From Catajapyx aquilonaris (Eukaryota), in contig JYFJ02000716.1 in the NCBI GenBank assembly GCA_000934665.2, forward strand, positions 1-64,000: a stretch of 64,000 nt of DNA, given 5' to 3'. The notes beneath the pieces are model-generated. The model had not been told where the DNA came from. It saw nothing but the letters and a program-made list of their open reading frames with translations, and did no database searches. The translations under genes were made by a program, and so were the position numbers. Below are positions 3,201-53,174 of this stretch, one piece after another; position 1 is the first letter of the stretch, and every line of letters begins with the position of its first letter.

Positions 3201-5689
3201 TTAGTGATCAATCATCTTGTAGTGAGACAGAAGAGCAAGTAATGTTACTGTTTTTGCCTGTGAGAAATCTCCAATGAAAGAAGGCGTACACCCTGCAGCT
3301 AACATGGTCACTTTATCTGCAATAGACCCTGGAATGTAGTTTGAAGCAGGGTATGTTGAATGCACTGCGTCCACCATGGAGTTCACCACTTCGCTCATGT
3401 CGGTGGTCTGCAAATGAGAGTGTGTCTAATCGTTATTAAGACTATTACACATTTCCTCCCGCATTCCCTCACTATACATGTTATCTACGATGAATACATA
3501 ATTATACCGTACAGGTTCGTGAAACACCGCACAGCTCTGTACGTACCCCATTTGCTATCATTGCTGCTGTTGCTGTGACGACCTCATCTCTGGACTTGTC
3601 TTCTATTATTTTTGTTTCTTTTACTATGTTGGTGGCTACGTTGCACATACAGAAGCAAACATTTGGGGTAGATTAGAAGAACATTTTGAAATGTAACTCC
3701 ACGTGAATATTACTGTTACCATTCATGAAGTTTCCGGGATCGATTGTGATCACTCGGATTCCATTTGGTGACAATTCCTGTCTGATACACTCGGAGAATC
3801 CCTTCAGAGCCCACTTGGATGAGTGGTACGCTGATCCAAGTGCTGCTCCAAACAGGCTGGAGATGCTGCATACATTTACAATACGGCCTGATACAACAAA
3901 ATAAGATCGTAAATATCTTGTATATCATGCACTGCAACATTAACATCCTGCTTGATTTGAGCCATATGCTGTGCAAAACATTCCCCTTTCCAAGTACATC
4001 GGCTACAGAATAAATGCATGTAATTATATCTATCGTAAGCACGAGGCCCCTCTTTAATGTAGCCCTACACTCTTTATGTTGTGATCCATGCTGTGCCATG
4101 ATGTTATTACTTACGGTTTTCTTTGTCAAGAAGAGGTAAAAAGGCTTTTGTCATTCTAATGTGGCCGTAGAAGTTGACAGACATTACTTTTTCATAAGTT
4201 TCCATAGGTGTATTTTTTACATAGCCTAATGTAGAAATGCCAGCGTTATTTATTATTCCCCACAATTCTGAAACATTGAAATAAAATGACGTTACCTTCA
4301 AGCATAAAGAACTTTTACCTGTGTGATTAAAATGCACAATTTACATCCAATTATCTGTTAAAACCCAATAGCAGCACAGGCAATGATTAAACTCGGTCAA
4401 TGAAAAGAAGAATATTGAATACCCTTAGAGGCCAAAATAATAAGGAGGCCTATCATGGGTATTCATTTATTACTCGTACATTGATCAATTTCCAATTCGA
4501 ATTATTTGCATGTCCGTGCAATGACATGACCATTTCTTGTCCAAAACATTCTTTGTAACAGAACATTTATTTGGAATAATGGTCCTAAAACTCATAGTGA
4601 ACCAAACACTGGGTCAGGGAATCGCTCTTACAATCTGCAAGGCTATTCAATTGGGGCCAGCTGATAGTAAATCCAGAACGCATGATTAATCCAATAAATA
4701 TCATGGATCAACCACTTGGGCTGGATTTATCAGAGGGGAATGGCCTTAACTATTCTTATAGCCTGAAATATACATTAACAGCATACCGTCTGATTTTGTC
4801 GGCAGATTGTCAGTCACATACTGTAAAGCATCTATCACGCTCTTCTCTGAGGTTATATCCAGCTGAATGACATGCATTCTGTCCGACTTCATTTCACGCA
4901 GCTTGGTCGCACCCTCACCTCCTTTGTCCAACAAGAGGCAGCCGGCATACACGGTGAAGCCCTGCATTAAAATTAATTCACATCTTGCTTTATAACAACA
5001 TACTTAAGTCAATCATAATGTGCATGGAAAGCTGGGCGATAATAAGTAACTTACAAGCTCATGCAATGTACAGGCTGCAGCATGACCAAATCCAGAATCA
5101 CACCCTGAAATGACCACTGCCTTTCCGTCGGGACATACCTGCGGAAAAATACAAAAATGGTTGTAGAATCTATTAATTTCCTGTCAATTGTGTTTATTTA
5201 CAAAAATGCAGGATGATAATGGGCAGACACTCATGGAATTATTTTGTTGAATAGTTATCATACTACTTTATCATACGTTATCATAGTACATAAAATGTAC
5301 TCTATTAAACGTTTAAGTTTATGTCATTGAGGTCGAATGATGAGGAGCATATAGGGCTTTAATCACAATAACAGTTTTAGCAACAAAATGCATGCATTAT
5401 TTTAATAAATGCTGTGCTCTTCCCCTGAGTATTATAGATACCTATTGGTTCTTAAATAATTATATGAAGCATAAAGTGATTTGTTTCTCTATAAATAATT
5501 CATTACCTTTCGGGACCGTATGATCCATATCCATCCACAGAAAAGAACATTCATCGTGAGTAACCAGGTGATAAATCCACTGGAGATGTTGAACCCAAAC
5601 AACGACAGAAGGAATGTTCCGACAATGCCCAGGGCTAAGAAAGAGAACTTCTCTTTCAGTATGTCATTGTAGTTTGGAAAAAACGCCAT
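3201..5689 (-). CDS. Membrane-anchored SDR9C-family dehydrogenase (BDH1/retinol dehydrogenase-like), copy 2, ~352 aa
   Basis: Exons 5689-5507, 5138-5055, 4961-4787, 4267-4115, 3887-3720, 3635-3547, 3407-3201; all GT-AG and phase-compatible. Hydrophobic N-terminus, SGCDSGFG, NNAGI, catalytic YHSSK, IDPGNF. Confidence 0.9.
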
Positions 5690-5947
5690 TTTCTGGAAAT
5701 AATTGCATAATCACATTAGTGTATTAGTAAAGTGGGAACACAATTTTATTATTATTAATCAAATTGTTACTTGCACTTTTATCACAGTTAATATCAACGC
5801 ACTGACTACCAGTGAGATTTAATGCTTTACGTAACATTATGTTTTTTATAAGCAGTCTTTCGGTATAGGAATGGAGATTCTGATAATCTGCTGATGTCAT
5901 AAATTGGATGGCTGTATAGGAACCCAGTAATGTGTGAAGCCCCATTT

Positions 5948-6045
5948 ACTTACTCAATTTTGACGGACTACGCGACTACCAATACCCTTTCTGTGATGTT
6001 TCTAATCACTGAAAGCAGCTGTGCTCTGTTGAATCACTTGCGTAA
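5948..6045 (-). promoter_or_regulatory. Putative core promoter and non-coding first exon of SDR copy 2
   Basis: Inr-like TCAGT at 6012-6008, GTAAGT donor at 5953-5948, bZIP/C-EBP-like TTACGCAA at 6045-6038. A homologous block recurs at 10621-10700 and 14574-14675. Confidence 0.5.
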
Positions 6046-6869
6046 AATGCACGCAATTATGAGGCAGAATTTCCACTGAGCAGAAGGGGTAACACTGACT
6101 GGAAGTGTTTTGCCGCAACGTTTATTTGCGGAGAAAATATATTTTCGGTAAAAAAACAAGACAACGGCATGGAAATATTCGCATTGTACGGAACATGACG
6201 TTGTGCTACAGAAATAATAATTACTACAGAGCCAAGTGTCAGAAAATATTGCTGCTCCATATATTTCATTTCAAAACTTTGCAAAAAAAAAGAATAGTTA
6301 CATCAGTATGAAACAAGGTGTTTCTTACATTACAGAGGAGTGGAAGTGTACAGTGTTAAGCAATATTCCCATACTGCTTAGGGTGGGAAAACTTTTTTTA
6401 AATCCGGTGTCGTGGTGTATGAAGCACTTATGTTACCATTCCTTTTCAGGCGTTAAGTTCATTTATCACTTAGCCCACCTTTCATGTACGATACGACATA
6501 ATTCATTGCAAGGTGTGTTTGCGCACTTCCCCAGCACAACGCATTATATCTGTATCGTTGCCTTATCTCATAGCAAAGAGGAAGGCCGAAAGTTTTTTTT
6601 TTTACATACATTACAAACCCTCGATATGAGCACCGCGTGTGACACGGCAGGCGTTTAACCGGATTGAAAAGATATTGGAAAATGTAGCATACCACACATT
6701 CTTCATATTTCCGCTAATTTTAGTTTTAATAAAATAATTCAAAGGTGGTGGGATTGTGACCTTTTTGTTTGGATGCTTGAGAAATGAATTACTAATAATA
6801 ATAATTCATTGGTGTGAGTGGAGGTAGTACAGAGACAGAGTCCGTGACAAAGTGTTGTCTTATTCACTT

Positions 6870-10620: not shown

Positions 10621-10700
10621 ACTTACTTCGAAATATAACCTTGTTGTTGGGTGTCTTTAAACACTGAAAGCAGTGCGCCACTGTTGTTGCACTTCCATGA
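10621..10700 (-). promoter_or_regulatory. Putative core promoter and non-coding first exon of SDR copy 3
   Basis: TCAGT at 10667-10663, GTAAGT donor at 10626-10621; homologous to 5948-6045. Confidence 0.45.
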
Positions 10701-14272: not shown

Positions 14273-14573
14273 CTCCTGGAAATAGTGGCAAAAGAATATT
14301 ACTGGTACGGTACATTAGGAACACACCCGTTATTAATGAAACTAATTTCTTCACATCTTTAAAGTTACCCTTTCATTGTCATCTCTGACACTGTGTAGCG
14401 TCGCATTATTTCAAATAGACCATCCTTGTTATTGTGCTAGCTTCGTTAAATTATACGTATGAACATTTAAATATCTTCCGACACATTATTGTGTGTTATA
14501 TTACCAAATTGAGATCCTTAATAATATAATTATGTCGCGAGGAATATTTCCTTGGTAATTGGAAGGCCGTAGT

Positions 14574-14675: not shown

Positions 14676-15324
14676 AATGGAGGGTATGATGATGCGGAAA
14701 TCTTTCCTAAGATGATAGAGTATCGCTGACAACAATTTATATCTAGGGAAAAATATTACGTTTAATAAAAAAGAAGCTGAATGGCATTGGAAGGGTCTGC
14801 AGTACTACAAAATAATGCAGTTACGCCAGACTGGATGTGTGAGAAACAGATATTGCTTAAGAATTTTTAATTAAAAAACAGTGTAAGAAAATAATCGGAA
14901 TCGAGCAAGTTCTTACATGTATTACCCCAGTAGAGCAGGTATATACTCTGAAGCAATCCTACGCATAACATAATGCCAAAAAAATTCCATGTTTCGAATC
15001 GATCCTATTTTATAAGTTGATAGTCCCTCACGCCTGCTTCACGCTTTGTTCTGCTCCATTGTTGGGTCGTAAACTCAAGCATTGACAATTCGACATAAAA
15101 AGACAGAGATGACGTGTGAATATAATTATAATTACTGGAAAACGGTTTTTCGGTAAGCTAAAAGTTTAATATTATGGGTAATATGCCGAATCCAAATGTG
15201 GAATCTTGTGCCAGACTAGTTGAGATGAATTGACAATACAAGTGTGTACGTATACTAAGAAATTCTCCACTTTTGTCGACCACGGATGTACAATACAGTA
15301 AGCCAGTGTCTCACTTCATACTTA

Positions 15325-15476
15325 CCACTGGATTCCTCAATCAGAGGTAGAAAGGCTTTCGTCATTCTGATGTGCCCAAAACAGTTGACAGTCTTTCGTA
15401 GGATTCGAGAGAATGAACTTATTTTAAAATAGGCGAGTTCCCCAATGCCTGCATTGTTAATTAAGCCCCATAATCC
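15325..15476 (-). pseudogene. Orphan, degenerate SDR exon 4
   Basis: Reads GLWGLINNAGIGELAYF..., then an indel, then ...FGHIRMTKAFLPLI; splice sites partly retained. Confidence 0.75.
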
Positions 15477-15585
15477 TGAAATAATAAGAATGGAAACGTA
15501 ATTACCATTTTGACTGAATTATAGAATGAACTTATTTAATTGATTTTAATATGGATTCTTAGGGTTACTTTTACCTACATTGGGA

Positions 15586-15737
15586 TTACATAAATAAGAG
15601 TGTAGGTTTAAATCCCACTGTTAACATAAAAAACTTGTCCATAATGGATCCAGTAATGTATTTTGTAGCAGGGGATGTTGAATGCACGGAGGCCACCAGC
15701 ATGGAGTTCACCATCACTTCGCTTACATCGTTAGTCT
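15586..15737 (-). pseudogene. Orphan, degenerate SDR exon 7
   Basis: TNDVSEVMVNSMLVASVHSTSPATKYITGSIMDK aligns with exon 7 of the intact copies, with insertions and an early stop. Confidence 0.75.
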
Positions 15738-16098
15738 GCAAATCCTTAGTCCGAAATTTCTTTCTTACTTTGCGACTGTTCGAGATGAAAGAGAGAAACG
15801 CCAATCGCAGAGAAGTAGGTCTAAATACCTTTATTCTCGAGAGTGAGTTTTTTCAGCTTCTATCATATAATGATGAGGGATTCCTTTTCTTCCCCCAAAA
15901 ATATGTCAAATTTATAAAAAAAACTCTCACAAGGAGTAAGAAGAAAGAGAAGAAATGGAAGGAATTTAAAATCAGGAAACCACGTCACTCATTGCTGTCA
16001 GATACTCTATGACAGAAAATATGCTTCATTCGATTAAGAGATTCTTAAACACACTGCTTTTCCCAATGCCATGGAACATCGTATCAAATATGCATTAT

Positions 16099-21805: not shown

Positions 21806-23659
21806 AGCCTGAAAATAATGAAAGAAAAATTCTGATGCATGATATAGTAGGTGTAATGAGGAGGAGGAGGATGATGATGATGATCATGCGAGAAAAGGGG
21901 CATGTTATGATATTACTTGTTCTAGAGTTGCGTGCAATAAATACGGTTCATTCCAGAATAAAATTTTGCAAGACAACTAATTGCCATACGTCAGATCATC
22001 TCTTCACTCATAACGCTCATGAATTGCGAGAATATTCTTCGAGCATTACATTACATAGTACAGCTCGGTTCAATAAAACATTTAATGTTGAATTCTATCT
22101 GTGACAGAAAACTAAAAATACTGCATTTTAACCCACCATTGTGTCAGAATAATAAATGTACGTACGTGTTACTCAAGATAACGTTTGCAATGTCAAATTA
22201 TAATTCAAATTACAGTATTTTAAGGTTTAAAAACCTATTTCTCAATATATTTAAAATAGGTCGAGTGTTTTGGGGTAAATTTGTTATCCAATCTCTTCAA
22301 TTACCTTCGAGTGATTCAATTATTCTTCGAGTGATTTTTCCATCGACGAGTGAATTTTTAAATAAAACCAGAGCAGTAAATATATTTTATTAATCTGCTG
22401 ATCGAGTCTATAAATACAAAAGCTATATTTAATGTCTTTTGAAGCCTTACAGTGGCCAACAATAGAAAGGGAAATCTTTTGCATTATTTGAAAGAGACAG
22501 ATTAACTCATTATAGTCGATTGTCGCCATGATTTTTTAAAGCAGCCATCTTTCAAGGTCGAACCTAAATATTTGAGTCATTTATATACAGAAGCGAGGAA
22601 ACCTAACTAATTCCGAAATAAGACTTTGGTTGCTAATAAGACCAACCCAAATTTCTAATCATCTGATTGCATTAACTTAGGGAATGAGAACGAAGGCATC
22701 CACCACATTATGTGACACCTGACTTACTTACTTTGGCTATGTCCACGTGACGAGCACTGACACTCCCTGGAACACAGTATGCCTCTGCCTCATTTCTATC
22801 ATGTCTATGAGAAATGCATGATGATAAGAGCTTGATTCGGGCTTGGAGCGGCAGATGGTGCACTTGCATAGGTCTTCACTCAGTATTGATCCACCTTGTA
22901 CTTTCTGTAGTCTGTTCCAAAATAATAATTGTCGTGTAGAAAAAAATCATAGCATCACTGATTGTCTGGTTTTAGACAGATTTTCATCGCCCATATAAAA
23001 AATATGTGCTCAATTTGAATTTAATTGACCTTTGCAGCATACAACTACCTTAGAGAGAACGCTGCTAGCACCTGATTTGAATTTATGTGATCCTTTCTGG
23101 CACATAACTAGCAGCAGATTTTACTTATTTACAGTATTGTAAAGACATCAAGAATGCCAAATAAAACTCTAAACACATCACTACATCAGCATTTATTTAT
23201 TGAACTTCCAGAGTATTACAGGATTACAGGTGCAGATATTGTAAATGCTGTCAGGGTGCGCATAGTATGAAGTGATATACATGAGAGCTACTCGGATATA
23301 TACCAGCTCTAAATTGGACCATGCATGCATAGAAATACGGTGTAAAAATATGCAAAAAGCTGGCAACATTCAGTGACTCAAGTATTCTCTCATTTTAAAG
23401 TGCAATACAGCAAACCCTCACTATACAACTGTTGCATTAAAGAAAAATTGGAGTGTGCAAAGAAAACTTCATGATTGCAACTCTCCCGGACTTTGACATT
23501 TTTAAAACTAAAAAAGTAGTCTACACCTCATGTTGGTGATAAACTCTACATTTAATGATCCTGAGAATATCCCCACCTTTGACCATCAACATGTGCGGAA
23601 GTATGTACGTATGTAGTTCAGAAACAGCATGCGTCGTGCACTTAGGGCCATATTATGTC

Positions 23660-26600
23660 CTACTTGCTTTTTATTCGCAACGTCATTTCGATATGAGTTT
23701 TTGGAATATCTGGATCTCCCCATCCCCAAACTGGGTGCGTACCGTCCCCTGTTCTCAATGCTCGAGATTTGATCACCTCAGGAGGAACAGTCTTCAGATC
23801 GTAAGCCAGGCCCAGAAGAGCAAAGACATCTATTATGATAGTCATCAGGTTGAATCCTCTGCCGATTCGCAACTCGGATGCCCTGTAGTCCCATGGAAAC
23901 ACGTGGTGATAGTTGTGGAATCCTTCTCCTTGTCCAAAGAAGCCCATGAACAGTGAGTCTGTCGCCCTTATGTTCCTGTTGGATTAATGTTTAGTACAAA
24001 AACAGGTTGTGGTGCATCGTAATGATCGTACCTGTCGTATGGCATATTCCCGTAGTAGTGGGCGTAGCTGTTGATCAACCACGTCCGGTTGAGTCCCACA
24101 GAGTATCGGCCAATCGCTCCACAAAAGAAGCACAATGCCCAAGATTCGTATGTGAGCCACTTGAACACAAGCGTTGGAATTACATAGAGGCTAGGGTACA
24201 CTAGCCAATAGTAGTACCTGAAAAAGGTGTCGAATTTCAGTTTGGTGATTACAAAAAGCTTGGGTGCATTCCTGTGGCAAATGAAGCACTGACACCATAC
24301 ACGAGAGAATAATATTTTGACGATGTGACTCACTTGTGCTGCCACATAATGTAGGGATCCTTTTCCATGTCACTCATGTCAATAAGCTTTCCCTTTTCGG
24401 CAACATCCGGATGTTTTTTGCACAGTAGCCATCCCATATGAGCGAAGAAGAATCCTCTTTTGATGTTGTGCGGATCTGCATTTGTCTCCGTGAACTTGTG
24501 ATGGACACGGTGATCTCTGACCCACACATATGCTGAATTCTGTAAAAATTGTAATAATAGGTACACTGTACACAAACATGTTACATTTTCTGCGTGCATT
24601 ACCTGTACTGCAAGAGTGTTGCAGATCAAGATGAATATTTTGAGCGGTAATTTAACTTTGTAGCCTCGATGAGCCCAAAGGCGGTGAGCGCCTGCTGCTA
24701 TTCCAATGTTGGTCATTAGCATGTAGCACCAAGCTAGAAAGTTTTAGATAGTGATCAGGAACACGCGATGAACGTAAAGAGCAAGTGCCATTATGGACGG
24801 CCTCAATTCTTGAATTTGCATAAAACGTATCGGGGATTTTTAAAACTCTCTAGTCTGATAATCATTTTCATATGTGTTTCACTTGAAACAGGTTTTTAAA
24901 TATAATCTCATTGACCGAAACTGCTTTAAAAATTGTCTGATTCAATCTGTTGGGAGAAACACTTTACTGAAAGTATTAGGTCTGTACTTCATAAATGTTG
25001 CCTAATTGAAGACTATTAATTTAGAAGGTAGTCATTGTTGACTTACGAAAATAATAACATTTGAAATATTTCATCTATCACATTTCCTTATCTATTCCAT
25101 CTCTTGTTATTATTTTTCAAATGCTAATATATTGTCAGGTTATCACGCAGCATATGGTCAAAATGGAATACAGTATTTTCCTATTCAAGTTGAATGAATT
25201 GTCCTGGATTGACCCTCTTCCTATGAGGACAGGTCCTCCGAGCAAAAAAAAGGTAGTAACTATCTTGAAATTCTGGTAGACCAAGGGCATGGCTTCAAAT
25301 ATTTGGGTCAGTCGTCGTCCAGGGAAAAAGGCATCAACTTTTCTTTCCTTCTTCCTATCAAGTTCTGCTGGAATTTTTCGCTCATATGTTAATAATCTAC
25401 TTGCACATCCAAGCATGAAAAGTTTGCGATATGCGTATAACATTAATATTTTTGTTCGTCAATTTTGCAATTTAATTTAGTACATAATGTTAGGCTCAAA
25501 TCCCGAAAACGGCCATTGCTAGGATTAGCTTCCACCGCAGTAGAAGTGCTGCATGATTATTTTTAAAGAGTTTTAAAATCACTTCGATCATCAAAACCGA
25601 TTTTTCATGTAATGTAATTACCAGTTGTAATAAATGTTTCTGGTATTTATACCTTGAATATAATTATGCTCTTTGTGTGTAATAATTATATCAACCGATT
25701 CCCAAAGAATCTGTTGGTTTATTTGGCAGTTGCAATTAGCTTGCATTTTGCCGTAAGTAACTTACAGTGTGATTGTTAATAAAGTGAAATATAATTCGGC
25801 ATAATTGTATGTAATATTTACCACAATATTATTACAAATGAAGCTTTTAACTGCTGGTCAGATTCTGACCAGAGGAGATTATTATTAATATAGTATACGG
25901 ACCAATACTATTGCAATTTATGGTTTGCGTGGTAAGCAGCAGAATAATTGTTGTAAATAAACATCATTAGGGCAAAACAATCTTACCTACAAAAACAAAT
26001 CTGAGTGATAACTGCAGGGTAATTAAGGTATATAAAGTGTACAATCCACATCCATGGATAAATGTGGATATGATTACGTTCTTCCACACCAGCTGGGTCT
26101 TGAAAGACTCTTTTTCTTCGGCTTCTAGCTTATCTACTTGCTGTATGACTTCTGCTTGTACCAACTCGTCCTCTTCATCGAGAACTCCGGTAAAAGTGAA
26201 CTTGGAATTATTAGGCTTCCCATCCTCATGATTTCTGTGGAATATGAATTACAAAAATATTACGAGACACTCTCCAGGCAGCAAGTATAATCGCCCTTTC
26301 CATCGCCCAATAGAATGATTGGCATTCGATCAAAGTGAGCTCAGATAATCTTCCTCTTGGTGCAGGAAGTAAATTTCGCTTTCGTGGAAATTGATGCCTT
26401 TCACTTGTACGCAAACATGCAAAAGAAAGTAAACTCAATTATTTATCCTCAGGCCTGTCTATCAGCACCGTAACAGCAACTGTTTGACCTTTCTGTAAAC
26501 TCTGGGCAGAGATGGAGAAAGAAATTATTATTATTACTATAATTATGGGGCGGTATCAAGTCCTATTTTCGTTCCAAGTTGAATGTAAGGAAAATAATGC

Positions 26601-31152: not shown

Positions 31153-33440
31153 GGGTAATTCCATGTGAGATCACCCAAAGATTCACATCCTCTATTTTTT
31201 AATAAAACTGAAAATTTTGGAATATAAACTTACACCATAACAATGAAATATAACATATACATTCTTGAATCTTGGGGTCAATAGTTCACAAGTTACAAGC
31301 AAAATAATGAAAAATTCCAAAAACCGAATACACGTGTTTCGAAATTTATTTATTCCTGAGTAGTTATTAAATTTATCTTACCGTAATTATTTTAGTATCA
31401 AATTTTTAGGAAAGGGAACTACTTTGCAATCTATATTTTAAATTTTTAAAAAGCTATGTTTCAAGACATTTTTACGGGGGTCAAAATCCATGACCTTTGA
31501 CATTTCAAAAAATGTATTTTTGAAAATTACGTAAAAATGTACAATAACACTACAGACATATATCTAACTTGCCCAAAAATTTCAACGGACCTGTTTGCTT
31601 CGTTTTTGAGAAAAAAAATATATAATCGATAATGATGTATTACTACTGCCAGGCTACCGACTGACCTCCAGTATTGAGTGCTTCTGCTTCTGCATATCAC
31701 TTACCCATAACTGTTCAAATACTTCTAATGTCAATTAAAGCCGTGGAATACATTTTACCATACGAGTACATTACACACGTGAGTTTTAAAAAATCACAGA
31801 ACACACATTATGTGTCAGTAGTTCACGTGTTAAGTAACCAAAAAATTCCAACAGCAGGTGACTGTGAGTGGATTTTTTTGCATCATGCCATGGGAAAGGG
31901 CCATGTGACGGAATGGGAGGGACAGTCAAAAGGATGACGGCCCGAGAGAGTCTGCATCGCCCCACCCACAATCAAATTGTGACAGCACAAGACATGTACG
32001 CCTTCTGTCAGTCCACATCATGCAGCATCCACTTTATTTTTGTATGCAATGAAGACGTCCAGGCAACGAAAAAAAAAGTTGCACCCAAGAACTGAAGCAG
32101 CTACTGTCACTATTACGGGAACTCAGAAACTCCATAGATTTATACCAACAACTAGGACTCAAATGAGGGTGCATTTTCTCTGTGCCAGCAACACCTCCAG
32201 GCTGGTGCAGGTGAGCAAGAATAACACCCAAGCAGCAGCAGAAGAGGAAGAAAAGGTTACTTACAGTGTCGGATCATTCTTCGCATGCATTGCAGATGAA
32301 ATGGTGTTCTTAGGCCAGATTTCTGATGTGTCGACTGAGTTTGGGGACTACCATGTCATTGATGTCAATATGATGCAGCAAGAGAGTGGTCATAACTACT
32401 GCTGGCCTCTATAGGGGAAGACAGATGCTGGGTGTCAGTGCACAAAATCCTCTGCTCTGTGCAGTGTAAATTCGACATAGTGACGGGAATTTACAATTTG
32501 ACTGTGCAGGACATTGAAAAAATTGAATATCAACTCCAACATCGTGACAAGTAGTGACCGGAGAGGGTAAGAGACTATATATAACTTGAAATATTCCGAT
32601 GCCTTCCTGTACTTCCTTTGTTCTCAATTTTTAACTACCTTAGTGTTGCAGTTACAATAGTCTACAATACTGTAGTTGAAGCTAATGCCAGGTTTCACTT
32701 ATGTTAATGTGCTGAGGAAGAAAGAAAGGTTCATAGTTGAAAATGATGTTCACCTGCTGTTGGAATTTTTTGGTTACTTAACACGTGAACTACTGGCATA
32801 TAATGTGTGTTGTGAGATTTTTTAAAACTCACGTGTGTAATGTACTCGTATGGTAAAATGTATTGACATTAGAAGTATTTGAACAGTTATGGGTAAGTGA
32901 TATGCAGAAGCAGAAGCACTCAATACTGGAGGTCAGTCGGTAGCCTGGCAGTACATCATTATCGATTAGATTTTTTTTCTTCTCAAAAACGAAGCAAAAA
33001 GGTCCGTTGAAATTTTTGGGCAAGTTAGGTATATGTCTGTAGTGTCATTGTATACATTTTCACGTAATTTTCAAAAATACATTTTTTGAAATGTCAAAGG
33101 TCATGGATTTTGACCCCCCGTAAAAATGTCTTGAAACATAGCTTTTTAAAAATTTAAAATATAGATTGCAAAGTAGTTCCCTTTCCTAGAAATTTGATAC
33201 TAAAATAATTACGGTAAGATAAATAACTACTCAGGAATAAATAAATTTCGAAACACGTGTATTCGGTTTTTGGAATTTTTCATTTGCTTGTAACTTGTGA
33301 ACTATTGACCCCAAGATTCATGAATGTATATGTTATATTTCATTGTTATGGTGTAAGTTTATATTCCAATTTTCAGCTTTATTAAAAAATAGAGGGTGTG
33401 AATCTTAGTTTTTTTTGGGTGATCTCACATAGAATTACCC
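31153..33440 (+). mobile_element. Internally deleted Sola2-like DNA transposon with ~700-bp TIRs
   Basis: Termini GGGTAATTC...GAATTACCC; 4-bp TSD ACTC (31149-31152, 33441-33444); TIRs ~31153-31861 and ~32750-33440. Frameshifted transposase remnant (W)xFFASCHGKGPCDGMGGTVKR...ITGTQKLHRF at ~31860-32500. Confidence 0.8.
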
Positions 33441-39811: not shown

Positions 39812-39813
39812 TA

Positions 39814-40170: not shown

Positions 40171-42434
40171 TTAGTATTATAGATCTGAACGTGTCCAATA
40201 CTTTTCTTAATCGGCATTCCTATAATAATAGCTATATCCGTTTGTGTATACATACCGCCGTTTTATGTTTGGTAGTAGGCCTATTCTGCTACAGGTAGCC
40301 TACTGTGCAAGAAGATGTGCTATGAAAGACTGACTTATTAGAGGCACGTTATACGTGACGCCGCGTCGAGATGGTTCAGAAAGGTGCGCACGGTGCGCAG
40401 GTTACGGAGCCGCATCTCTGGCAAGATCTCTGGCATGTACAAGAGCTAATAAGTTGCATGTACCCTGTGCAAATTCGCACCAACTGAGCTGCGCAGCCAG
40501 TAAGCAGCATTCGGATGAGCCACCTTTACCTGCGCATCAAGTCGGTTTAATACGGATTTTTCCTGCATTGTAACCCTTTACCTGCGCATCAGTCGATTTT
40601 AAGAGAAGATATCATTTCCGTGTTTATTCCCACGGCAATTAATTTTCATAAATTATTATAGTTGGTTACGTGATATGAAGGTGAAGGAAGTATAGCTGCG
40701 AATAATTTCAGACCGCCACGTTTTGCCAGGTGCCTCTGACGTACAAGCACAACCTTGCAAATTGCATTAATCAGTTTATCCGTATCTCTATAGTCATGTG
40801 AAGGTTCTAAAGACTTTTGAATGGTACAGTAGGACAATCACAGCTTCTCTATGGTGCATGAGTGAAAGAATGTTCATCCAGTTTATCGCCTGAAAGATCC
40901 GTGTAATATCTTGATTTTTGCTTCTTCTCAAACTATTTAAAGCCAATACTCTCCTTGTAGTGGAGGCACTTTGCAATTTGTGATTATTTCATTCGTCATT
41001 AATCATTATGCTACCATAACCTTAATATCTGAATTTCACACAGCTCTTACACCCAGGTATGATGCAAGGAATATGATGCACAATTTCTTGAAACTCTTCA
41101 GAGTCATGAGTTAGAAGTTACTGTTCATTATCATAATGCGCAATAATGCTCATATATTATGAAGTATCCTTCCAGCAAGTTTATTCAGATGTATAGGATC
41201 TGTCACAAGAGATATAGCCAGCATGTTAAGGCGAAAATATTTTTATGCCCCTTTACGCGGAACGCCTCTGTATTGTTCACAAACATGTAATGACGATATA
41301 AAAATTACAGCTGTTATTCTCGTATTTTTTCAAGCATGAAAATATAGTGAAAACATTTTTCCGCTTTGATTGAAAGGTATATTCTCACGCTGGGAATACA
41401 CGATATGACGCTATATACGTATTCCATCTCCATGTGATGTGAGAGCAATGAAAAGTACGATATACGTCTCTCATAATATGCATTGGCATTGACAGGCTCA
41501 CGTTTACAACAACGATGTGATGTCTTCTTCATCTTCATATGGCAGGCTAATCTCAAGACAAATAGCATGTAAAATGCAAAAGCATAAACAGTTGTCGTTG
41601 GTGCAAATTATTGTTATTATTATGCAGTTCTCCGTCAGATACATTACTTGCGTCACTTCTCTGTAATAATTATATTCCCCTGCTCTTGAAGTAACAGGTC
41701 TCAACATGCAAGGACGTAATGTTTCTGATCTTGAATCAACAACCGGTGGATATTTTTACCTATTGGGCAATTGGCATTATATAACTACTCGCAACTACAC
41801 CCTGTCGAAGACTCGTTATACGAGATATACTCATAGAAAGATTTCACTGCATTATATTATTAGCCCAGTCATTTTAGGTTTTGACCCAAAAAAAAATCGT
41901 GTAAAGCTGGAAATTGGTACAGAGGTACTATTCGACCCCATGAACAAGACACTAAAAGTCCTGAGAAATCCGAAGACCGGAACATGGTTTTTAACAAGCA
42001 TAAAGGTCCTAAGTGACAAAAACATCGACATTTCACTCCAGAGTGAGCAGTTTGGCTCGAAATCATCCCAGAATGCTCGTAAGTAACTTGTTTTAAACGT
42101 GAGTGTGTGGGTGTAATCACAGATCCAAACTTTGGCCGGAAGAATTTAAAAAAACAGTAAGAAAAGGTCATTTTTATTAAATATTACAAATACAGGTTAT
42201 ATGATTACGGCCAACAAAATTGAATATTTATCTTGGGTACCTTGAAGGTTAGACCGATTTTAGGGTATATTTGTGGCGCTGATTCCAAAACTGGCATCCG
42301 TTGTGCCCCATCAGCGCTGGTTTTTGAGATATATCGTTTCAAAGTTTGGACCGGTTTACTTTCCGAATCAAGTGAGCCGAAACCTTTTTACATCTTCTCA
42401 GATCTAGGGGAAAATAATCACAGATGTAGTGATA

Positions 42435-43017
42435 CAGATACTTCTATAAGTCGAATCTTCATGGGACCGGAAAAAATTCAAGTTATAGAAGATTCGAGTT
42501 AGAGAAGTTTGGAATTTTTAAAGATCAAAACCCTATAAGGAAACCTACCTTTATATCCAGCGACAAAAGGTGTTCAAAACTTAAAAATAACTGTCACTAT
42601 CACACATACAATGTACCTCATTGTTTTATTGTAAAAAAAAATCCCCGTTATGGACATTTGCCTACTATTAGATTCAAGGATTCCATTGTCACAAGCGAGT
42701 CAAACACTTCTTTCGGTAATGTATGGTAGACGGAGATCAGGAAATTGAGCCTTTCTGCGCATGTGGCCTATACTCTTGACCATTCGGCTGGGCAATGAGA
42801 AAATTTTCCGTACTCGCCAACATGAACTTCGACTTAGGGAGACTGAAAATGCATTGATATCCCATCGTAAGGCCCTGCCTGCACTTCGAGTTATAGAAAT
42901 TCGAGCTAGGGAAGTTTATTTCCTATTATTTTACATTGTGACCAACCAAGCTCATCATTTTATTCGACTTATAGAGAACTTCGACTTAGGGAAGTTCGAC
43001 TCATGGAAGTTTTACTG
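42435..43017. mobile_element. Tc1/mariner-pogo-type MITE nested in the left arm of the foldback element
   Basis: TA-CAG...ACTTCTATAAGTCGAA / TTCGACTCATGGAAGTTTTACTG-TA; internal TTCGA(G/C)TTAT/AG subrepeats; absent from the right arm. Confidence 0.75.
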
Positions 43018-43282
43018 TATGCCTATATGCCATAATTCTGCATATCAAGTTTCATCCACATTGCGCAATACCATTTGGAAAAAATCGAGAAACTTTGAAA
43101 ATGTCTGAAAATTAGGCCTCTTTTGGAGATTTTTATTTCGGTTAGTGGAATTGGTCAAAACCCAATGAACATATATATCAAAAGAAAGACACACCAGGAG
43201 AATGCGCCGATGGAATTAGTTTTTCTCTATAATGTAAATAAAATAATTTATTTTTACATTTCATTGGTCACTTGCTTAGACA

Positions 43283-43624
43283 CATTCCTTCATTCCTTCA
43301 TATACATCACGACTTTTCCTATATTGGGGTGCCTGCGGATAATGAGGAGCAGGTCCTCCTTACCCTCAGATAATTGCAAGGGGGGGGGGGATACAACAGA
43401 TTGCCGACAGGACAGGCTATGCTGGGATGTTGACTTCGGCGGTGTCCCAGGTGACGTCCACCAACAAAGGACGGGCGAGGCAGGAGTACCATCTCATTTC
43501 TGAGTTGTTGGCACCACCAGACCGCATCCCGTTGCCTTGCATGGGACGAAGGAGGACAGCAAAACCTCCAGGCCTCCAGATGGAACGCCTTCTACTTGCC
43601 GAATGAACTGGTTATGCTGGGATG
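43283..43624 (-). mobile_element. Short non-LTR retroelement insert with a simple-repeat tail
   Basis: Flanked by direct repeat (TTG)CTTAGACA (43272-43282, 43625-43635); minus-strand 3' tail ATGAAGGAATGAAGGAATG; absent from the right arm. Confidence 0.6.
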
Positions 43625-44486
43625 TTGCTTAGACATATGCCCAAGAATTAGGACCCCGACAATTAGTGATCTATTTCCGATACATCAGTTGTATTATGTG
43701 ACACTAGTTGTGACTGGCACAAGGTTCACTCTGTTAAGTTTGAGGCCTGACTCATGCATGGTTCTCCAGATAATAATTGATATCTTTTGCTGACATAGCA
43801 TTAAAAATGGTATATCTGCAAAACATATCTATTATTATCTGGAGAACCATGCATGAGCCAGGCCTCAAACTTAACATACTGAACCTTGTGCTGGTCACAA
43901 CTATAGTGTCACTAAGTACAACTGATATAACGCAAATACATCACTAATTGTGCAAGTGACCAATGAAATGTAAAAATAAATTATTCTAGTTATATTTTAG
44001 AGAACAACTAATTCCAAAGGCACATTCTCCTGGTGTGTGTCTTTCTTTTGATATACAGTATATGTTCATCAAGTTTTGACCAATTCCACTAACCAAAAAA
44101 AATCTTCAAAAGAGGCCTAATTTTCGGCCATTTTCAAAGTTTCTCGATTTTTTCCCTCCAAATGGTATTGCGCAATGTGGATGAAATTTGATATGCAAAA
44201 TTATGGCATATATCTGTACATCTGTGATTATTTTCACCAAGATCTGAGAAGATGTAAAAAGATTTCGGCTCACTTGATTCGGAAAGTAAATCGGTCCAAA
44301 CTTTAAAACGATATATCTCAAAAACCGCAGCGCTGATGGGGCACAACGGATGCCAGTTTTGGAATCAGCGCCACAGATATACCCAAAAATCGGTCTAACC
44401 TTCAAGGCACCCAATAAGATAAATATTCCATTTTGTTGGCTTGTGTAATCATATAACCTGTATTTGTAATATTTAATAAAATGACC

Positions 44487-44897
44487 GAAGCAGCAGCAGC
44501 TGAGGGGATTTGGTATCCGGCTGCAAATCGGGAGGTCCAGGGATCAAATCCCCAGGCCGGCAACTCTGACCGTGGTTTTCTGTGGTTTCCCACGGTCCCC
44601 CCAGGTAAATACCGGAGTTGTTTCCTAATCGTAGGCCACAGCCGCTTCCTGCCTTCCCTATCCCTGCCCCGTACTGGAGGAGGTGCGGCGTTTGTGGGAG
44701 GCCTCTTACCCGCACCTAGAGGGTCGTCTTTCAACCTAGCCCTCTGGGGGACTGCACACGGCCTCCGCCATGAGACATTGCACTTGCACCACTGTCCCCC
44801 CCTCCATTCCAGCACTGGAGAGACAGAAAATGGTAGAAAAAACCTCCCCCCTACATAAGCCAGAAGGCTTCAAGGGTGTAATTTTTTAAAAAAATAA
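44487..44897 (+). mobile_element. tRNA-derived SINE nested in the right arm of the foldback element
   Basis: Degenerate A box (GCTGAGGGG) and B box (GGATCAAATCC); central GGTTTTCTGTGGTTTCCC...GGCCACAGCCGCTTCCT segment; A-rich tail; 12-bp TSD AATAAAATGACC (44475-44486, 44898-44909); empty site in the left arm at ~42165-42180. Confidence 0.8.
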
Positions 44898-47073
44898 AAT
44901 AAAATGACCTTTTCTTACTGTTTTTTTATATTCTTCTGGCCAAAGTTTGGATCTGTGATTACACCTACACACTCACGTTCAAAACAAGTTACTTACGAGC
45001 ATTCTGGGGTGATTTCGAGCCAAACTGCTCACTCTGGAGTGAAATGTCGATGTTTTTGTCACTTAGGACCTTTATGCTTGTTAAAAACCATGTTCCGGTC
45101 TTCGGATTTCTCAGGACTTTTAGTGTCTTGTTCATGGGGTCGAATAGTACCTCTGTGCCAATTTCCAGCTTTACACGATTTTTTTTAAGGTTCGACCAAA
45201 ATTTAATCTAAAATGACTGGGCTATATACAGCATAGTAGGCAAAATACCCAAATTCACCACATGTTGTGATTTAAATTGGCAAATGGAACTTGTCGGGTA
45301 ACTAAACTTAAACAGTCTTTCGTTATTTAACAAGGCAATATGCATACGAGTAAATGTGGGCTAAAGTGACCTGATATAGAGCAATGTTTATCGTGGCTGG
45401 AAAGCAATTTTCTTTCAAGGTCATCAAGTGGAAGTAACGGGAAGTTGACAAGTGTATCATTGAACGAACCTGTTCTTCCGTCATAGGTGCGCCTTGTTAA
45501 ATGACTAAAGCATCAATTTACTTGATAATAAAATGATATTTTGCCTGTTCTGTAAAAAAAAAAAAAAGAGTGAGAATAGCAAGCACGTTATCCGACGACT
45601 AAAAACCATTAATCGGCTTAAATAAATAAGAAAATATTTTCGAACTGTACAGCCAAACAAAAACTATGTTCTGCGAAATATATTGTTGGTGCCACCCTTT
45701 TCTGAAGCAACAATTATTATTGCTCTGCGTAATTAGTTATATTTATTTATTTATTTATTTATTTTTATTTTATTTACCCCGTTATGGAGCAGTGGTCTCT
45801 TGAGGGTACGTAATTAGTTTTATTCGTTATACTGGTACCTATTGTGCAAAAAAAGTTTTGTTTTAAACATTAAATCGGCATTCCGAATGGATGCAATATT
45901 TTAATGTTTCCCGGATAGTCAAACGATGATTTATTTTAGTTTGGTTGCTTTTCCTACATGAATTTAATTTAAATTGTTTATGCGAATTTTTCCGGTTATT
46001 ACTATAGCAGAAAAATTGTTTTCCATTAGCTTTTGCGACATCGAGGCGACATCGACAGAAGTGACACTTTCACCTGCACATCCATATTGAAAAATATCTC
46101 CTCCATAATATTCATCCTGAATAGATCTCACGAAGGGCAAGATTATGTCATGCTGAATAATGAACCTTTGAATTTTCCGACGGATGCTTTTGTGAATACA
46201 AAAAAGTGTTTCTTACACATAGTGTATTGCAATGGATCCGAAAAACACACATTTTCTGATTTAAAATTAAAATGTTGTTATGCTATTTAAAGTTAGGTAC
46301 TATCTCGTATGTGTAACAGCCTCTGAATCAATGGAAGTGTTACAGGCTGTAACCGTGGCATGTGATGACTCCTTGATATTATTATATTTGTAAAAAAGCT
46401 GCCGGAAACTAAATGACATATGTAGGCATACACATAAAGTGATTCTATGATGCCATAAGTCTGCCTGAATTATTGTGAAACTCCTACAAACAAAGACTTG
46501 GTTGCGTGCGAATGATCTAATTAACATTCAAGCCAATTTGTCTAATTGGGCATTGCCATGCTTCCAAGCATAACTACATTGAGGATCACTACTTGTAGAT
46601 TTTTATCTGTAGCAAAGATTTCAAAATAAGCATAATTAAGCCTTTTACAGCAAGTTAAGTGAAATAATTACAGGAAGCACTGTCTAGTCATAAATTCTTA
46701 CCTTGTTTTCTTTATGAAAATGGCGACAAAAGCGACTGTCCCTCCCGCTTCTGAATGCGCTATTTTGTCACTATAAACAGTCGTCACTCTCTAAAGCTGT
46801 ACATGCTATGCATCTAGGCAGCTTCTAGGTGTCCTGTCTCGGGTAACTGACCGCCGTAACTACTGTCACCATCGAAAGATCCGGAGTAGTTTTAACGTTC
46901 ACTAGGTCGTATCCCCCTTGAAGCTACTTTCCAACATGATTTTCTTGAATTCAGATACGACGACAAGTTTAGCAGAAAAAAATTCTGGTTACACTAGGTG
47001 CAGTCAGTTTCAGGATAACTTGACCCAACTAATAAAGCTATCCAATCAATTTACACTCTCCTCCTATACTCAG

Positions 47074-47144
<71 letters not shown>
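47074..47144. repeat. (ATT)n microsatellite, ~23 units
   Basis: Read directly from the sequence. Confidence 0.95.
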
Positions 47145-47146
<2 letters not shown>

Positions 47147-48415: not shown

Positions 48416-51400
48416 TCAATTGAACTTCCTCTTAGGTGAATTGATCCGAAGTGTCATCCGAATGTGTTCCTTCGGGATATCCTTGTCTCCCCATCCCCAC
48501 ACAGGACGTGTTCCATCTCCAGTTCGGAAGGCTCGACTCTGGATAATCTCTGGAGGAACCGTCTTCAGGTCGTAGGCCAAACCAATCCAAGCCAGTAAGT
48601 CGATCAGGAGAGTGTTCACGTTGATTCCTCTTGTGAACCGCAGCTCAGAGGCCCGGTAGTCCCAAGGAAATACGTGGTGGTAATTGTGGAAACCTTCACC
48701 CTGTCCGAGGTAGCCCATCAGAAGGGAGTCTGTTGCGTGAATATTTCTGATGGACGAAAGGGAAACAAATAGAGGTATGTAATGAGAGTAGCGGTTCAAA
48801 ACTGGATTTTGCACGCGAAGTTTTTTAAAAAAAATAAGAGCCACTTGCTCATCACTCTCTTTTTCGGATTCTGGAACATATACAGATCAGTAATCTAGGT
48901 TGACGCAATGATTACAAGTATGTTCTATAGAAATAATTGGAGTGCCTGGTTAGTTAACAGATTGCTGGCAGCTATTGAAGACTGACATAACTATCTGAGA
49001 GTGAAAGTGTGCAAAACTGGAACAATAAATAGTAAGGGCTGGGCTGGTCATACATACTCGTAGCATTAAAATTGCAGGTAAATTTAAAGACGAAAATATA
49101 GATGCACGCCACTTGCGTCTTGCTGCACACTTTTTTCTGTTGTTGTTTTCATAACTTGTTCTCCTTTTCTTTAAGTCACGTGTTTTGGGCCAATGACGCA
49201 GAAAGAGAGAGCAAAATGACTGCAGCTCCTATATCCACCCATACCGGTTCCTCCAACACATTCCGTGCACCAACCTACTGTGGACATGTATGAAAGGTCA
49301 GGATAAGTTTCATGCGCAATATTTTGAATTTTTTTCCGAGTCATTGAACATGTGCTCCTTGTGATTCGTCGGAATTTTAGTGAAATACACAACCGTTCTA
49401 AACTATTTATGTCATTGTTATTTTTAACATCGTAATATAGCTATTATCGATTCCTTATCTGATAACGTCAAACGAAAAAGTAGGTGTACTAATAATTAAC
49501 TTCACTGCTTTCCAGCCACCATACCTAGCACATTGATGTCAATTTCAGATTCTATAACCTTGTGCTAATTCACTTTCTTCTGATAAAGGTGACTATACTC
49601 CGTTCTAACTAGATGTCATATAATCTCTGACCGACAGGGGTTTTACCTCTTACCAAAGAAGCCTGCTGTGAACACCAGTCTAACCAGTGTGATAACCCGA
49701 TAACATTATTTTTGCCGTTACGTAACAGCCGGCCAAAGACCTCACACATGACCATGATGAAGCATATAAACAGCTGAGCAATGTGACTATAAGTCAAAGA
49801 AATAAAAGGAACGTTTCCTATACTCGAAATATTTCATCATCAGACGTTAATCTACTCCTTTTCAGTGTATGGGTGCATTGTTGCCATCAGGTCTAAATTA
49901 TTGATGGATATATAACAAATTCGAAATCATTCTAATATTCTAATAGCTTAACATTCGACAATTTTGAAAGACCTTAAAGTGGAAGGAAAGTCAATGAAAG
50001 TCTCGAAGGAGGTCAGATAGCAGTGTACGTAATAATATTAATAAATTATGCTTCTGTGAATTGCGGAGAGTCCAGTTCCGATACTGACCCATACTCTCAC
50101 TTCAAATGAACTACTTTGTATGGATTCTTTGAACACATTTTCAACCGACCTTATATAAAATATCCTAAGTGAAAAGAATCAAGTCTGTGTATTGAAATAC
50201 GCAGATGCAGCAAAAAAAAATTGTCATAATTATTTGAGATGATTGTGCCACAGCTCTCTGTTTGCTATAACTTATATAATTTTTCAGGCATTATTTTTAA
50301 CAGGCCGCATGTGAAAGTCAACGCACCTGCATGGTAGTAAAATACAAGCCACGAGAGAGCAGCACACACCAACTCTGGGTGGAGAAAAAGCAGGCCAGGA
50401 GTGGCTTTTAAGGATTGAAGGCGGAGGTTTCATGATGGTGTAATTTATGTCACTTCTGTTGATGATTCATTAGGTGACGAACACGCCGTTGGGTTATATC
50501 TCGGAAGAGAAATTCAGATGCCGCACCGCTATATGTTTGCCCATTTTTGTTGTTCCCTATTCAGTTGTTGTCAGCATATTAATTTGAAATTTACCGGTGA
50601 CTCTTGACGGAATTATCTTCCTCACCGACGAGTAATTACAATTTGTCAGACTTCTCGGAAGTGATTTGTTGTTGAATTGATGAAGAACATTAATACCCAT
50701 GTAATATGTCCAGTGAGGAGACCTTCAAATTATGCATTAGACAGCAGCATGAACATTGGTGAAATGCATGCTCATTAACAGCCTTTTTTGGAGCACACAA
50801 TTATACATAATTGAGCGGCTCTTTTTACAAAAAAAGCATTATCTCTTGACATGCCTTAATTGCCTGAAAGCTGTATATATGAATTGTCTGTCACATTGTT
50901 GCTGGCCTACTTCATGTTGTCAAGTCATGTCATGTTATGAGCCATCGCAGATTTTGTTTTTCGTCAATGTAGCTTGCACTCCACCAATTAATCAATCTCA
51001 TAATATGTGTGACAGAAGTCATTACACAAGCTTATAATCTAAAAGTCCAACTTACTTGTCATATGGTCGATTTCCAAAATAATGTGCATAACTGTTGATA
51101 AGCCACGTGAGGTTCAACTGAATCGAATATCTTCCTATTGATCCCAGCAGCCAGCAGGTGAAGTATGTTTCATTGGTGAGTGCTTTCAAAACTATCGTTG
51201 GCACCACCAGAAGGGACAAATATGCCAAAACCATGTAATGCCTGAAGTAACAGATGAGATTGTTTTCAACGAAACGTGATAAAAACTTGCAAAAATGAAA
51301 TGTTACGATGAATACATTATACTGTATTAGTTGATGATATGAATTAATTCGGGCAACATATTATATCATTACATAAGGCGTATGATTATTATTGATGTTA

Positions 51401-53174
51401 CCTGTGTTGCCACATAATGTAAGGATCTTTCTCCAGATCACTCATGTCCACATATTTCCCCTTGTTGAGCACGTCTGGGTGTTTCTTGCACATAAGCCAT
51501 CCCATGTGAGCGAAGAAGAATCCTCTCTTTATGTTGTGAGGATCCGCATTTGTCTCTGTGAACTTGTGATGCACCCTGTGATCTCTGACCCACACGTAGA
51601 GGGAGTTCTGTCCAACAAATTAAATATTAGCAATGAATATTACCAGGCGAAAAAAGGTGATAATGACAAATATTCCGCAGATAAACGCCTGTACTTCATG
51701 CATTGATACAAAAAAAATACTAATTATTGCAATACGTACCTGTACTGATAGGGTTTGCAAAACCAAGAAAAAGAGTCGCAGGGGCAGTTTTGCTTTGTAT
51801 CCTCGGTGTGCCCAGAGGCGATGAGCACCTGCTGCTATTCCGAAGTTGCATATTGACCCATATGCAAAACCTGAAATGAATTAGAATTAACTACTGTATT
51901 ATTTGGCGTGTTTACTATAAGACTCCAAATTCATTAAAATCTGGACGAAAATGTAAAAAACTTGGACCTGTTGCGCAAAGGTTTGGCTATTGGGAAATGT
52001 TTTTCGTCACATATTAGCCACAGTATGAAATTCGCTACTGAAAGGTACCGGTATATAAATGCACTCTGGCCATATTTTCCCCTATACATTTTCATACAGA
52101 ATAATAAAAGTAAGTTCGGAAAGAAACCTTCGTGATGGACAGTAATTTAGATAATATTTCCCTTTATTGAATGTATTCCTACAAGTTAACAGCCCTTTCA
52201 CTTGGGCCATGTAAAGCTTTCTTCGTCTTATTTACTGTTTCCTTCCATTCAAAACACGTTTAAGGCTATCAGTTGTTATAAATAATTCTGAAGGTGAAAT
52301 GGTTTACTTATTATACTACAGGCTACATGTTTTGTTTTGCAAGTTTTATAACAGTAATTTATATTCACCTACTTCACATAGGACAGGATATCACTCTTAC
52401 TCGTGCCATGTGGTGACGTGACTTGCGATATTGAAAATACAGTTAACTTTCATTTTCTTGCTTATAAAGCAATGGAGAGGAGTGATGATATGCAAGAATT
52501 TCCTGCGTGCCAAACCCAGTTACGTGATTAATTTGTCATTTTTCTTCGAGTTCAACAGACCAGGAAGACTTATTTTCCGTGTTCTTGCTCCCACTCTAGC
52601 AATTATACTCTGTGGCAGCATGAAAGAAGTGGTTTTTTTTCTCTCTTAAAGTGAACGCCCAAATCCATTTTGCATTCACTAATAGGTCCCTACCATTAAT
52701 ACTATCCTTTTAAAACACCCTCATTTAAGATATTAATAAATGCAATATGCGACCTTGAAAGTTCTTCTGTGCAAATTGCAGCATTATTTATATTTTTATA
52801 ATAATGTAATGACGCTTAGAGTTAATCCTCTTTTTCTGCACATGCTACCTTATGACGATTTTATGAGATTACGCGACAATTTGTTCAATGTCAAAGAGTG
52901 TAAACGCACCTGCTGCGAATGTTCTAAAAGCAAGGCTTCCGCTGGCAATTAAATACACCGTGTACAGTCCGACTCCATGAATGAATATGGATCCCAGGAT
53001 ATTCCTCCAAACTAGATCCTTCAGTTTCACGGACACCTTTTCGTTGCTTTCTTTTTTCTCAATGTCGTGAATGATTTTCGGTTGAATGTCTCCATCCTCC
53101 TCGCTCAAAACACCGGTGAATTCTGGTACTCGATCCTTCTCCATGTTTGTTGTCGGGTATTCGCTGAAAGACAT
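48416..53174 (-). CDS. Acyl-CoA desaturase, copy C, ~372 aa, signature HATD
   Basis: Exons 53174 (or 53144)-52910, 51870-51740, 51607-51402, 51241-51056, 48746-48416. His boxes HRLWAH, HRVHH, HNYHH. Confidence 0.92.

Follow-up and report, generated by a model that had tools for sequence, protein, structure and literature searches.

Three acyl-CoA desaturase genes adjoin five genes of short-chain dehydrogenases/reductases (SDRs) of the SDR9C type in a 64,000-nucleotide stretch of the genome of Catajapyx aquilonaris, which covers positions 1 to 64,000 of contig JYFJ02000716.1 (C278:1-64000) in an assembly of 286 Mb and 20,583 contigs and is referred to here, as a whole, as the window. The question raised by this locus is whether two unrelated families of lipid enzymes lie side by side as parts of one biosynthetic pathway, or whether two gene arrays grew separately and became neighbours. 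With slightly better than even confidence, we read it as two independent tandem expansions that adjoin each other and not as a self-contained pathway, because the two arrays differ in age, the desaturases do not form one clade and no other unit of desaturase plus SDR occurs in the fetched stretches of the genome.

The difference in age comes from rough Nei-Gojobori estimates of synonymous (dS) and nonsynonymous (dN) divergence. Among the desaturases (DesA, DesB and DesC), dS reaches 2.83 for the pair A-B and 1.96 for the pair B-C, and it is saturated for the pair A-C; among SDR2 to SDR5 it is only 0.34-0.56, and 0.88-1.04 between these and SDR1, the most divergent SDR copy in the window. Moreover, a clade uniting the three desaturases was rejected (approximately unbiased test, p=0.02) and appeared in 0% of 200 bootstrap trees; the tree places DesC with desaturase genes on contigs C34 and C2444. 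The gene order is three desaturases followed by five SDRs, with neither interleaving nor a repeated desaturase-SDR unit. In tblastn searches of the stretches fetched from the 13 other desaturase contigs (parts only of the larger ones), SDR matches were absent, and the stretches fetched from C335, C4012, C5074 and C505, where the other SDR copies lie, gave no desaturase. No sign was found that desaturases and SDRs arose together or were duplicated as a unit, as would mark a biosynthetic gene cluster. A sequence-only reading of the locus had proposed that both families expanded in parallel, a proposal that does not survive (near-)saturated desaturases from more than one clade, a young SDR2-5 group and the lack of any co-duplicated unit.

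The arrangement described in that reading is nevertheless accurate. Splice-aware alignment yielded five intact BDH1-like SDR genes and three acyl-CoA desaturase genes, all on the minus strand and arranged head to tail, and the distance between the DesA stop (23660) and the SDR1 start codon (21805) is 1,855 nt, against an earlier estimate of about 1.9 kb. Thus, the adjacency of unrelated enzyme families that is characteristic of biosynthetic gene clusters is present for two families. The claim that no gene intervenes also stands: none of the 68 open reading frames (ORFs) in the gaps SDR1-DesA, DesA-DesB and DesB-DesC reached the Pfam cut-off, in a scan of ORFs of at least 45-66 amino acids that short exons would escape, that was confined to these three gaps and did not extend to those separating the SDR copies, and that left out 6 of 156 listed ORFs, all of them beyond the window. 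Yet a transposon-like element with terminal inverted repeats (TIRs) and further repeats lie between the desaturases, and the single match below the cut-off, to zf_CopZ, falls within that element. In the gap between the arrays, motif matches alone mark two poly(A) signals, one 104 and the other 459 nt past the DesA stop, and, near 22733, a donor that might serve a leader exon of SDR1; SDR1 probably has a non-coding first exon, since a splice acceptor lies 3 nt before its ATG. A fusion or read-through between desaturase and SDR found no support, DesA having its own stop codon and both poly(A) signals in the gap. The upstream regions of the two families share no sequence detectable by blastn except one repeat, a comparison in which short motifs would be missed.

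The assignment of the five SDRs to the SDR9C type was likewise borne out. All of them carry the Gly-rich cofactor loop, the NNAG motif, the catalytic Ser and the YxxxK motif of classical SDRs, with adh_short matches above the Pfam cut-off in SDR1 and SDR3. Each gene comprises seven coding exons with GT-AG introns in the same phases (0,0,1,1,1,0) and encodes 352-360 residues, and the proteins are 58-73% identical to one another (computed before an exon edge of SDR5 was corrected). Their nearest named matches are BDH1-like proteins and their best solved relative is DHRS9; a HMMER search with representative SDRs returned no close relative, the best full-length identities being about 35-44%, while a first homology search that used an intron-containing ORF as query had returned only 3 of 680 candidates. 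An exon search of the genome gave 15 matches, namely 13 close copies, distributed over C278 (five), C335 (five), C4012 (two) and C5074 (one), and a distant pair on C505 whose sequences look like conventional BDH1 copies. The 13 copies form one clade (SH-aLRT 100; 100/100 in a second tree using seven of them) on a long stem of 0.74-0.76 changes per column, which falls inside a BDH1-containing group (grouping node 92/90) without a resolved sister group and has intron positions in common with the BDH1-like C505 pair. Thus, both the nearest named relatives and the tree place these genes in the BDH1 group of SDR9C.

Several residue changes bear on the chemistry of this clade. SDR1-5 have a hydrophobic N-terminus within residues 10-59, a putative anchor that agrees with the membrane-bound enzymes previously suggested. 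Substrate loops are variable across SDRs in general; in SDR2-5, dN is 0.10-0.14 in three core segments and 0.35-0.46 in three substrate-facing loops, in the loop after strand 6 dN about equals dS (0.46/0.44), and throughout the clade the substrate loop is shortened and hypervariable. An Arg often follows the catalytic Ser in the reference sequences but is missing from 12 of the 13 copies, which suggests neutral hydrophobic substrates rather than hydroxy acids. Together with the hydrophobic N-terminus, the remodelled pocket would argue against a role of the window SDRs as mitochondrial 3-hydroxybutyrate dehydrogenases. Furthermore, the BDH1-type Asp in the Gly-rich loop is kept in four of the five window SDRs (Asn in SDR4), and five copies outside the window (C335:72570-100841, C4012 and C5074) have lost this Asp and gained an Arg after strand 2. 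By the usual SDR cofactor rules, the window copies would presumably be NAD+-type and those five NADPH-type, so that a NAD-to-NADP cofactor switch within the clade is possible.

The two tandem arrays of the sequence-only reading are both real. Each is a small part of a genome-wide expansion (3 of about 29 desaturases and 5 of the 13 clade SDRs), and the SDR array also holds a pseudogene, with an extra base in the T run after its ATG and in-frame stops, as well as exon debris. The array probably continues onto C335, judging from the interleaving of window and C335 copies in the tree and from a 4-kb block, 90.9% identical, that holds SDR5 in the window and its twin, C335e, at the end of C335. The two contig ends were rejected as alleles, the genes flanking the shared block being different; a young duplicate within one broken array is the likelier source of both blocks. 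Between the twins (C335e at C335:103137-105612), dN (0.06) exceeds dS (0.04), and the T run that carries an extra base in the window pseudogene carries one in C335e too, a pattern of either relaxed or positive selection, or of an assembly slip. On C335, a TRIP4/ASC-1 gene (C335:85000-86800) splits the SDR array between copies a and b.

The desaturase array was also identified correctly. DesA, DesB and DesC have five located coding exons each, are 65-68% identical and carry the three His boxes of SCD-type desaturases at canonical spacing. Of 776 candidates, 596 reach E<=1e-15 and support homology to named acyl-CoA desaturases, with PF00487 in nearly all of those listed; two single-piece ORFs, taken alone, had no Pfam match. 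The first located exon of DesA lacks an in-frame ATG (its ATGs are all out of frame), and no convincing upstream exon was found for this gene. The matching exon also lacks an in-frame ATG in 11 of the 16 paralogs shown, and in two paralogs, C776 and C34c, a small coding exon precedes the matching acceptor by 150-340 nt; given both observations, a frameshift in DesA is not preferred as an explanation, and a recent lesion could still be involved. DesC had been taken to start at 53174, where the ATG lies just upstream of a splice acceptor and is probably not the start.

The exon search of the genome gave 30 desaturase matches on 14 contigs, corresponding to about 29 genes, of which 27 were modelled, with the partial copies on C1276 and C13270 excluded. 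Most of the modelled genes belong to a lineage-restricted clade whose sole close database relative found is the Logan protein P0010. At the position in the second transmembrane helix that matches Tyr104 of SCD1, as counted back from the first His box by SCD1 numbering, DesA has Met, DesB Ile and DesC Gly. Tyr is kept there in only 2 of the 27 (C3563 and C8482), and DesA-C thus lack the residue expected of Desat1/SCD1-like C16-C18 delta-9 desaturases. The substrate tunnel is therefore altered in the desaturases as well as the pocket in the SDRs, in agreement with the diversification of substrate-contact residues that had been claimed for both arrays. Since this tunnel-capping Tyr is lost, and since a copepod desaturase with Thr at the same position acts on C22-C26 chains (PMC9617917), the substrates of DesA-C are likely to be longer than C18, that is, very long chains. 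Such substrates would fit the elongase and wax-synthase expansions of this genome.

In the genome-wide searches, whose counts are all lower bounds, there were at least 15 matches to fatty acyl-CoA reductases (FAR), at least 14 to fatty acid synthases (FAS), at least 121 to cytochromes P450 (P450), at least 84 to EcKL proteins, at least 148 elongase exon matches on 22 contigs and at least 32 C-terminal matches to wax synthases/diacylglycerol acyltransferases (WS/DGAT) on 18 contigs. By its WS/DGAT and elongase counts, the genome is predicted to encode a very large wax-ester toolkit. The best matches of a PDHA housekeeping exon from another contig, among 8,000 scored candidates, are insect sequences at 83-84%, which fits a hexapod-like arthropod and lends loose support to the insect frame of the sequence-only reading. 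Among the matches listed, none to FAR, elongase, FAS, WS/DGAT or P450 lies on C278 or C335. The SDRs are not expected to use the acyl-CoA product of the desaturases before a reductase or another enzyme has acted on it. Because of this need for a prior reductase, and because none of these families has a listed match on either contig, the locus would cover at most two non-consecutive steps of a pathway.

The structures, numbers, tree placement, ages, altered residues and neighbours of the genes are observed; from these we infer substrates, cofactor and tissue as follows. An old array of divergent acyl-CoA desaturases stands next to a younger array of SDRs of BDH1 descent in which turnover continues, and both were probably generated by unequal crossing-over. 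The desaturases would be di-iron enzymes of the endoplasmic reticulum that place a cis double bond in acyl-CoAs, probably of more than 18 carbons, and their products would feed wax and cuticular-lipid machinery encoded elsewhere in the genome. The SDRs, in turn, would be membrane-anchored and probably NAD+-type, interconverting neutral hydrophobic alcohols and the corresponding aldehydes or ketones with a distinct pocket in each copy. Both arrays may serve surface or gland lipids.

A number of observations weigh against two expansions that merely abut. Firstly, the eight genes share one orientation, with only a short gap between the arrays. Secondly, under a crude null model of uniform placement over 100-285 Mb (an assumed effective size), with contact defined as within 5 kb and array spans taken from the search listings, a contact between desaturases and SDRs is expected only 0.007-0.019 times, for a pair that was picked after being seen. 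Thirdly, in the fairer comparison, which allows for this choice by taking all pairs among seven lipid families (with the P450 count doubled for incomplete scoring), 3-4 lipid-lipid contacts were seen and 0.66-1.88 expected, a mild excess with P of 0.03-0.29 for at least three contacts and 0.005-0.12 for at least four. The four are this locus, desaturases touching elongases on C776 and on C352, and WS/DGAT genes touching P450 genes on C125; the count is three if the related C776 and C352 cases are one event. Moreover, the SDR clade contains older splits (dS 1.2-2.8) among the copies outside the window, gene conversion could have lowered the apparent age of the SDRs, and genes of unequal age may have been recruited into one pathway later on. 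Finally, the assembly consists of many fragments, and the search covered only parts of the other contigs.

The other contacts put this excess into context. At C776:42000-69000, one plus-strand desaturase (57.3-59.0 kb) lies within an array of at least six minus-strand elongase genes, a closer pathway pairing than the window locus. Its closest paralogs are five tandem genes on C352, where a degenerate elongase exon follows at 3.3 kb. Two minus-strand ORFs beside that exon (L029 and L030, C352:99398-100570) gave no Pfam match; they may resemble an MpaB/DUF2236-type oxygenase. At C125:128000-145000, three WS/DGAT matches adjoin P450 genes. As a control with an unrelated family, a tandem run of more than 20 single-exon EcKL matches (C1276:1-53421) ends within about 1.1 kb of two desaturases, where the null model predicts 0.03-0.085 such contacts. 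Expanded families thus meet regardless of a common pathway, since a desaturase pair also adjoins this unrelated array. Elsewhere, desaturases have ionotropic receptor, aminopeptidase, vanin and ING genes in their neighbourhood.

Among the alternatives to independent expansions, the one that survives best is a functional cluster, in which the unsaturated very-long-chain acyl-CoAs made by the desaturases would be converted by an unlinked reductase into alcohols, and these by the linked NAD+-type SDRs into aldehydes or ketones in gland or epidermis, the linkage being kept by co-regulation or co-inheritance. We hold it to be tentative, with roughly one chance in four in its favour expressed loosely. 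It draws on the co-orientation across a 1,855-nt gap, on the rarity of such a contact under the null model, on SDR loops that diverge three to four times faster than the core and approach dN equal to dS after strand 6, and on the additional lipid-lipid contacts in the genome; a precedent is the pheromone of Nasonia, which is shaped by three SDR genes (PMC5050451). Nevertheless, the ages differ, the desaturases are not one clade, no match to a reductase, elongase or wax synthase is listed for the contig in searches that give lower bounds, the upstream regions have only a repeat in common, the fetched stretches hold no second desaturase-SDR unit, and the unrelated EcKL array makes an equally tight contact with desaturases.

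A broader version of this idea, which we regard as rather doubtful, is that a much enlarged wax and semiochemical machinery is organised in several multi-family loci in this genome, such as desaturases with SDRs here, a desaturase in an elongase array (C776/C352) and WS/DGAT with P450 genes (C125). At this locus, very-long-chain desaturases would be combined with a new membrane-anchored clade derived from BDH1, whose window members would act as NAD+ oxidases and several of whose members elsewhere as NADPH reductases, leading to unsaturated long-chain aldehydes, ketones and secondary alcohols.

It is less probable that the SDRs are an expansion of Shroud, CG8888 or BDH1L type whose substrates are sterols, isoprenoids, carotenoids or xenobiotics from the diet, with the desaturases as mere neighbours. 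Rapid birth and death of genes, accompanied by pseudogenes, is a trait of detoxification families, and the turnover of the SDR array would suit such a family too. In the literature, the substrates of SDR9C members include retinoids and steroids (PMC3184775), BDH1L is a carotenoid-oxidising enzyme of birds and fish (PMC12421482), and Shroud, CG8888 and CG13377 form one clade, Shroud having been duplicated in crickets to up to about six copies (bioRxiv 10.1101/2025.04.14.648839). The intron positions common to the clade and the BDH1-like C505 pair point elsewhere, as does the placement of the clade in the BDH1 group, where its sister is not resolved, and the size of the elongase, WS/DGAT and desaturase sets suggests that lipid chemistry is extensive in this animal. 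No sequence named Shroud was among the search results. Lastly, an assembly artefact, by mis-joining or by haplotypes assembled apart, is very improbable as the source of the adjacency or the copy number, for all the 20,583 contigs, the 90.9% identical block at the C335 end and the extra homopolymer base in C335e, because the protein identities among window copies (58-73% for SDRs, 65-68% for desaturases) are far beyond those of alleles, the window contains no N and the shared block has different neighbouring genes on the two contigs.

As independent expansions, both arrays have counterparts in other animals. Insects commonly show desaturase expansions, both tandem and dispersed (PMC4298175, Helmkampf et al. 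2015), and their first-desaturase clusters likewise consist of tandem paralogs with common introns, dispersed satellites, pseudogenes and three His boxes; the accessible text of that paper mentions no linked SDR. The window genes differ in belonging to a lineage-restricted clade with P0010 as its only close relative. Amphioxus has 14 BDH1-like genes produced by tandem expansion (PMC3184775), and the window SDRs resemble this BDH1 group in their BDH1-like best named matches, in DHRS9 as best solved relative and in the lineage-specific kind of tandem expansion. The window clade is set apart from that group by its long stem, two N-terminal hydrophobic helices, a short hypervariable loop and the Arg loss in 12 of 13 copies. 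The Nasonia genes NV10127-NV10129 presumably belong to another, prostaglandin-dehydrogenase-like SDR family. They are, similarly, three paralogous NAD+-dependent SDRs that modify a signal derived from fatty acids in its oxidation state or stereochemistry, but they have no signal peptide, are mentioned without a linked desaturase in the accessible text and have a demonstrated function (PMC5050451).

Genuine clustering of unrelated enzyme families in animals is exemplified by the terpenoid gene clusters of octocorals, which are conserved across species, hold the committing enzyme and are linked to a product (PMC12685057); the window locus resembles them in the adjacency of unrelated families. 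The pheromone region on chromosome 20 of Heliconius also shows a loose clustering of candidates for fatty-acid-derived biosynthesis, but as a quantitative trait locus of megabase scale, unlike two adjoining arrays, and information on biosynthetic clustering in Lepidoptera is described as largely lacking (PMC7790645). No arthropod desaturase-SDR cluster appeared in literature titles or the beginnings of abstracts, a weak negative with most subscription papers outside its scope.

As found, the locus represents a further lineage-specific tandem expansion in two known lipid-enzyme families, and it flags an uncharacterised 13-gene BDH1-derived clade and a set of about 25 desaturase genes without the chain-length cap as targets for enzymology. 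If co-expression and a common product proved true, the locus would join the small number of arthropod biosynthetic clusters that combine several families, the discovery of animal lipid pathways from gene neighbourhoods would become credible, and BDH1-like enzymes would gain a role in wax or signal chemistry.

Features of the window, with coordinates in nucleotides from its first position
Feature	Coordinates	Strand	Basis or remark
Remnant of SDR last exon	830..935	-	translation like SDR4 C-terminus; ends approximate
SDR pseudogene, exons 1-3 only	1370..1934	-	spliced alignment
Block shared with C335	2593..6564	.	blastn, 90.9% identical to C335:102538-106478
SDR5, BDH1-like SDR9C, 7 coding exons, 352 aa	3201..5689	-	spliced model
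SDR4, 360 aa	6870..9789	-	spliced model
SDR3, 357 aa	11756..14272	-	spliced model; adh_short match
SDR exon debris	15321..15786	-	tblastn; decayed exon 7 and exon 4 pieces, order scrambled
SDR2, 358 aa	16099..18775	-	spliced model
SDR1, 357 aa	19516..21805	-	spliced model; adh_short match
Gap between arrays	21806..23659	.	0/11 ORFs with Pfam match; motif scan
Desaturase A (first-desaturase family)	23660..26234	-	5 located exons, three His boxes
DNA-transposon-like TIR element	31178..33406	.	self-blastn; no Pfam match above cut-off
Desaturase B, 359 aa	36240..39004	-	spliced model
Desaturase C	48416..53163	-	in-frame ATG at 53144; further upstream exon probable
RasGEF-domain exon	60220..60600	-	Pfam PF00617, E 1.3e-11

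The TIR element between DesA and DesB has inverted arms of 688 bp that are 92.9% identical, and its internal ORFs are broken; a likeness of motifs suggests, tentatively, a transposase origin. Nested inverted repeats between DesB and DesC (41889-45186), which are also found on C4012 and further contigs, are probably non-autonomous transposons. The RasGEF gene is the next recognised gene past DesC and marks the boundary of the locus. Farther along C278, one or more genes of the LDL-receptor family lie about 24 kb beyond DesC (C278:76800-88100), followed by CNOT11, a zinc-finger gene and a SPO22-like gene. At the opposite end, the contig starts with 5.3 copies of a 48-bp tandem repeat (window positions 1-254), which is the likely cause of the assembly break in the SDR array.

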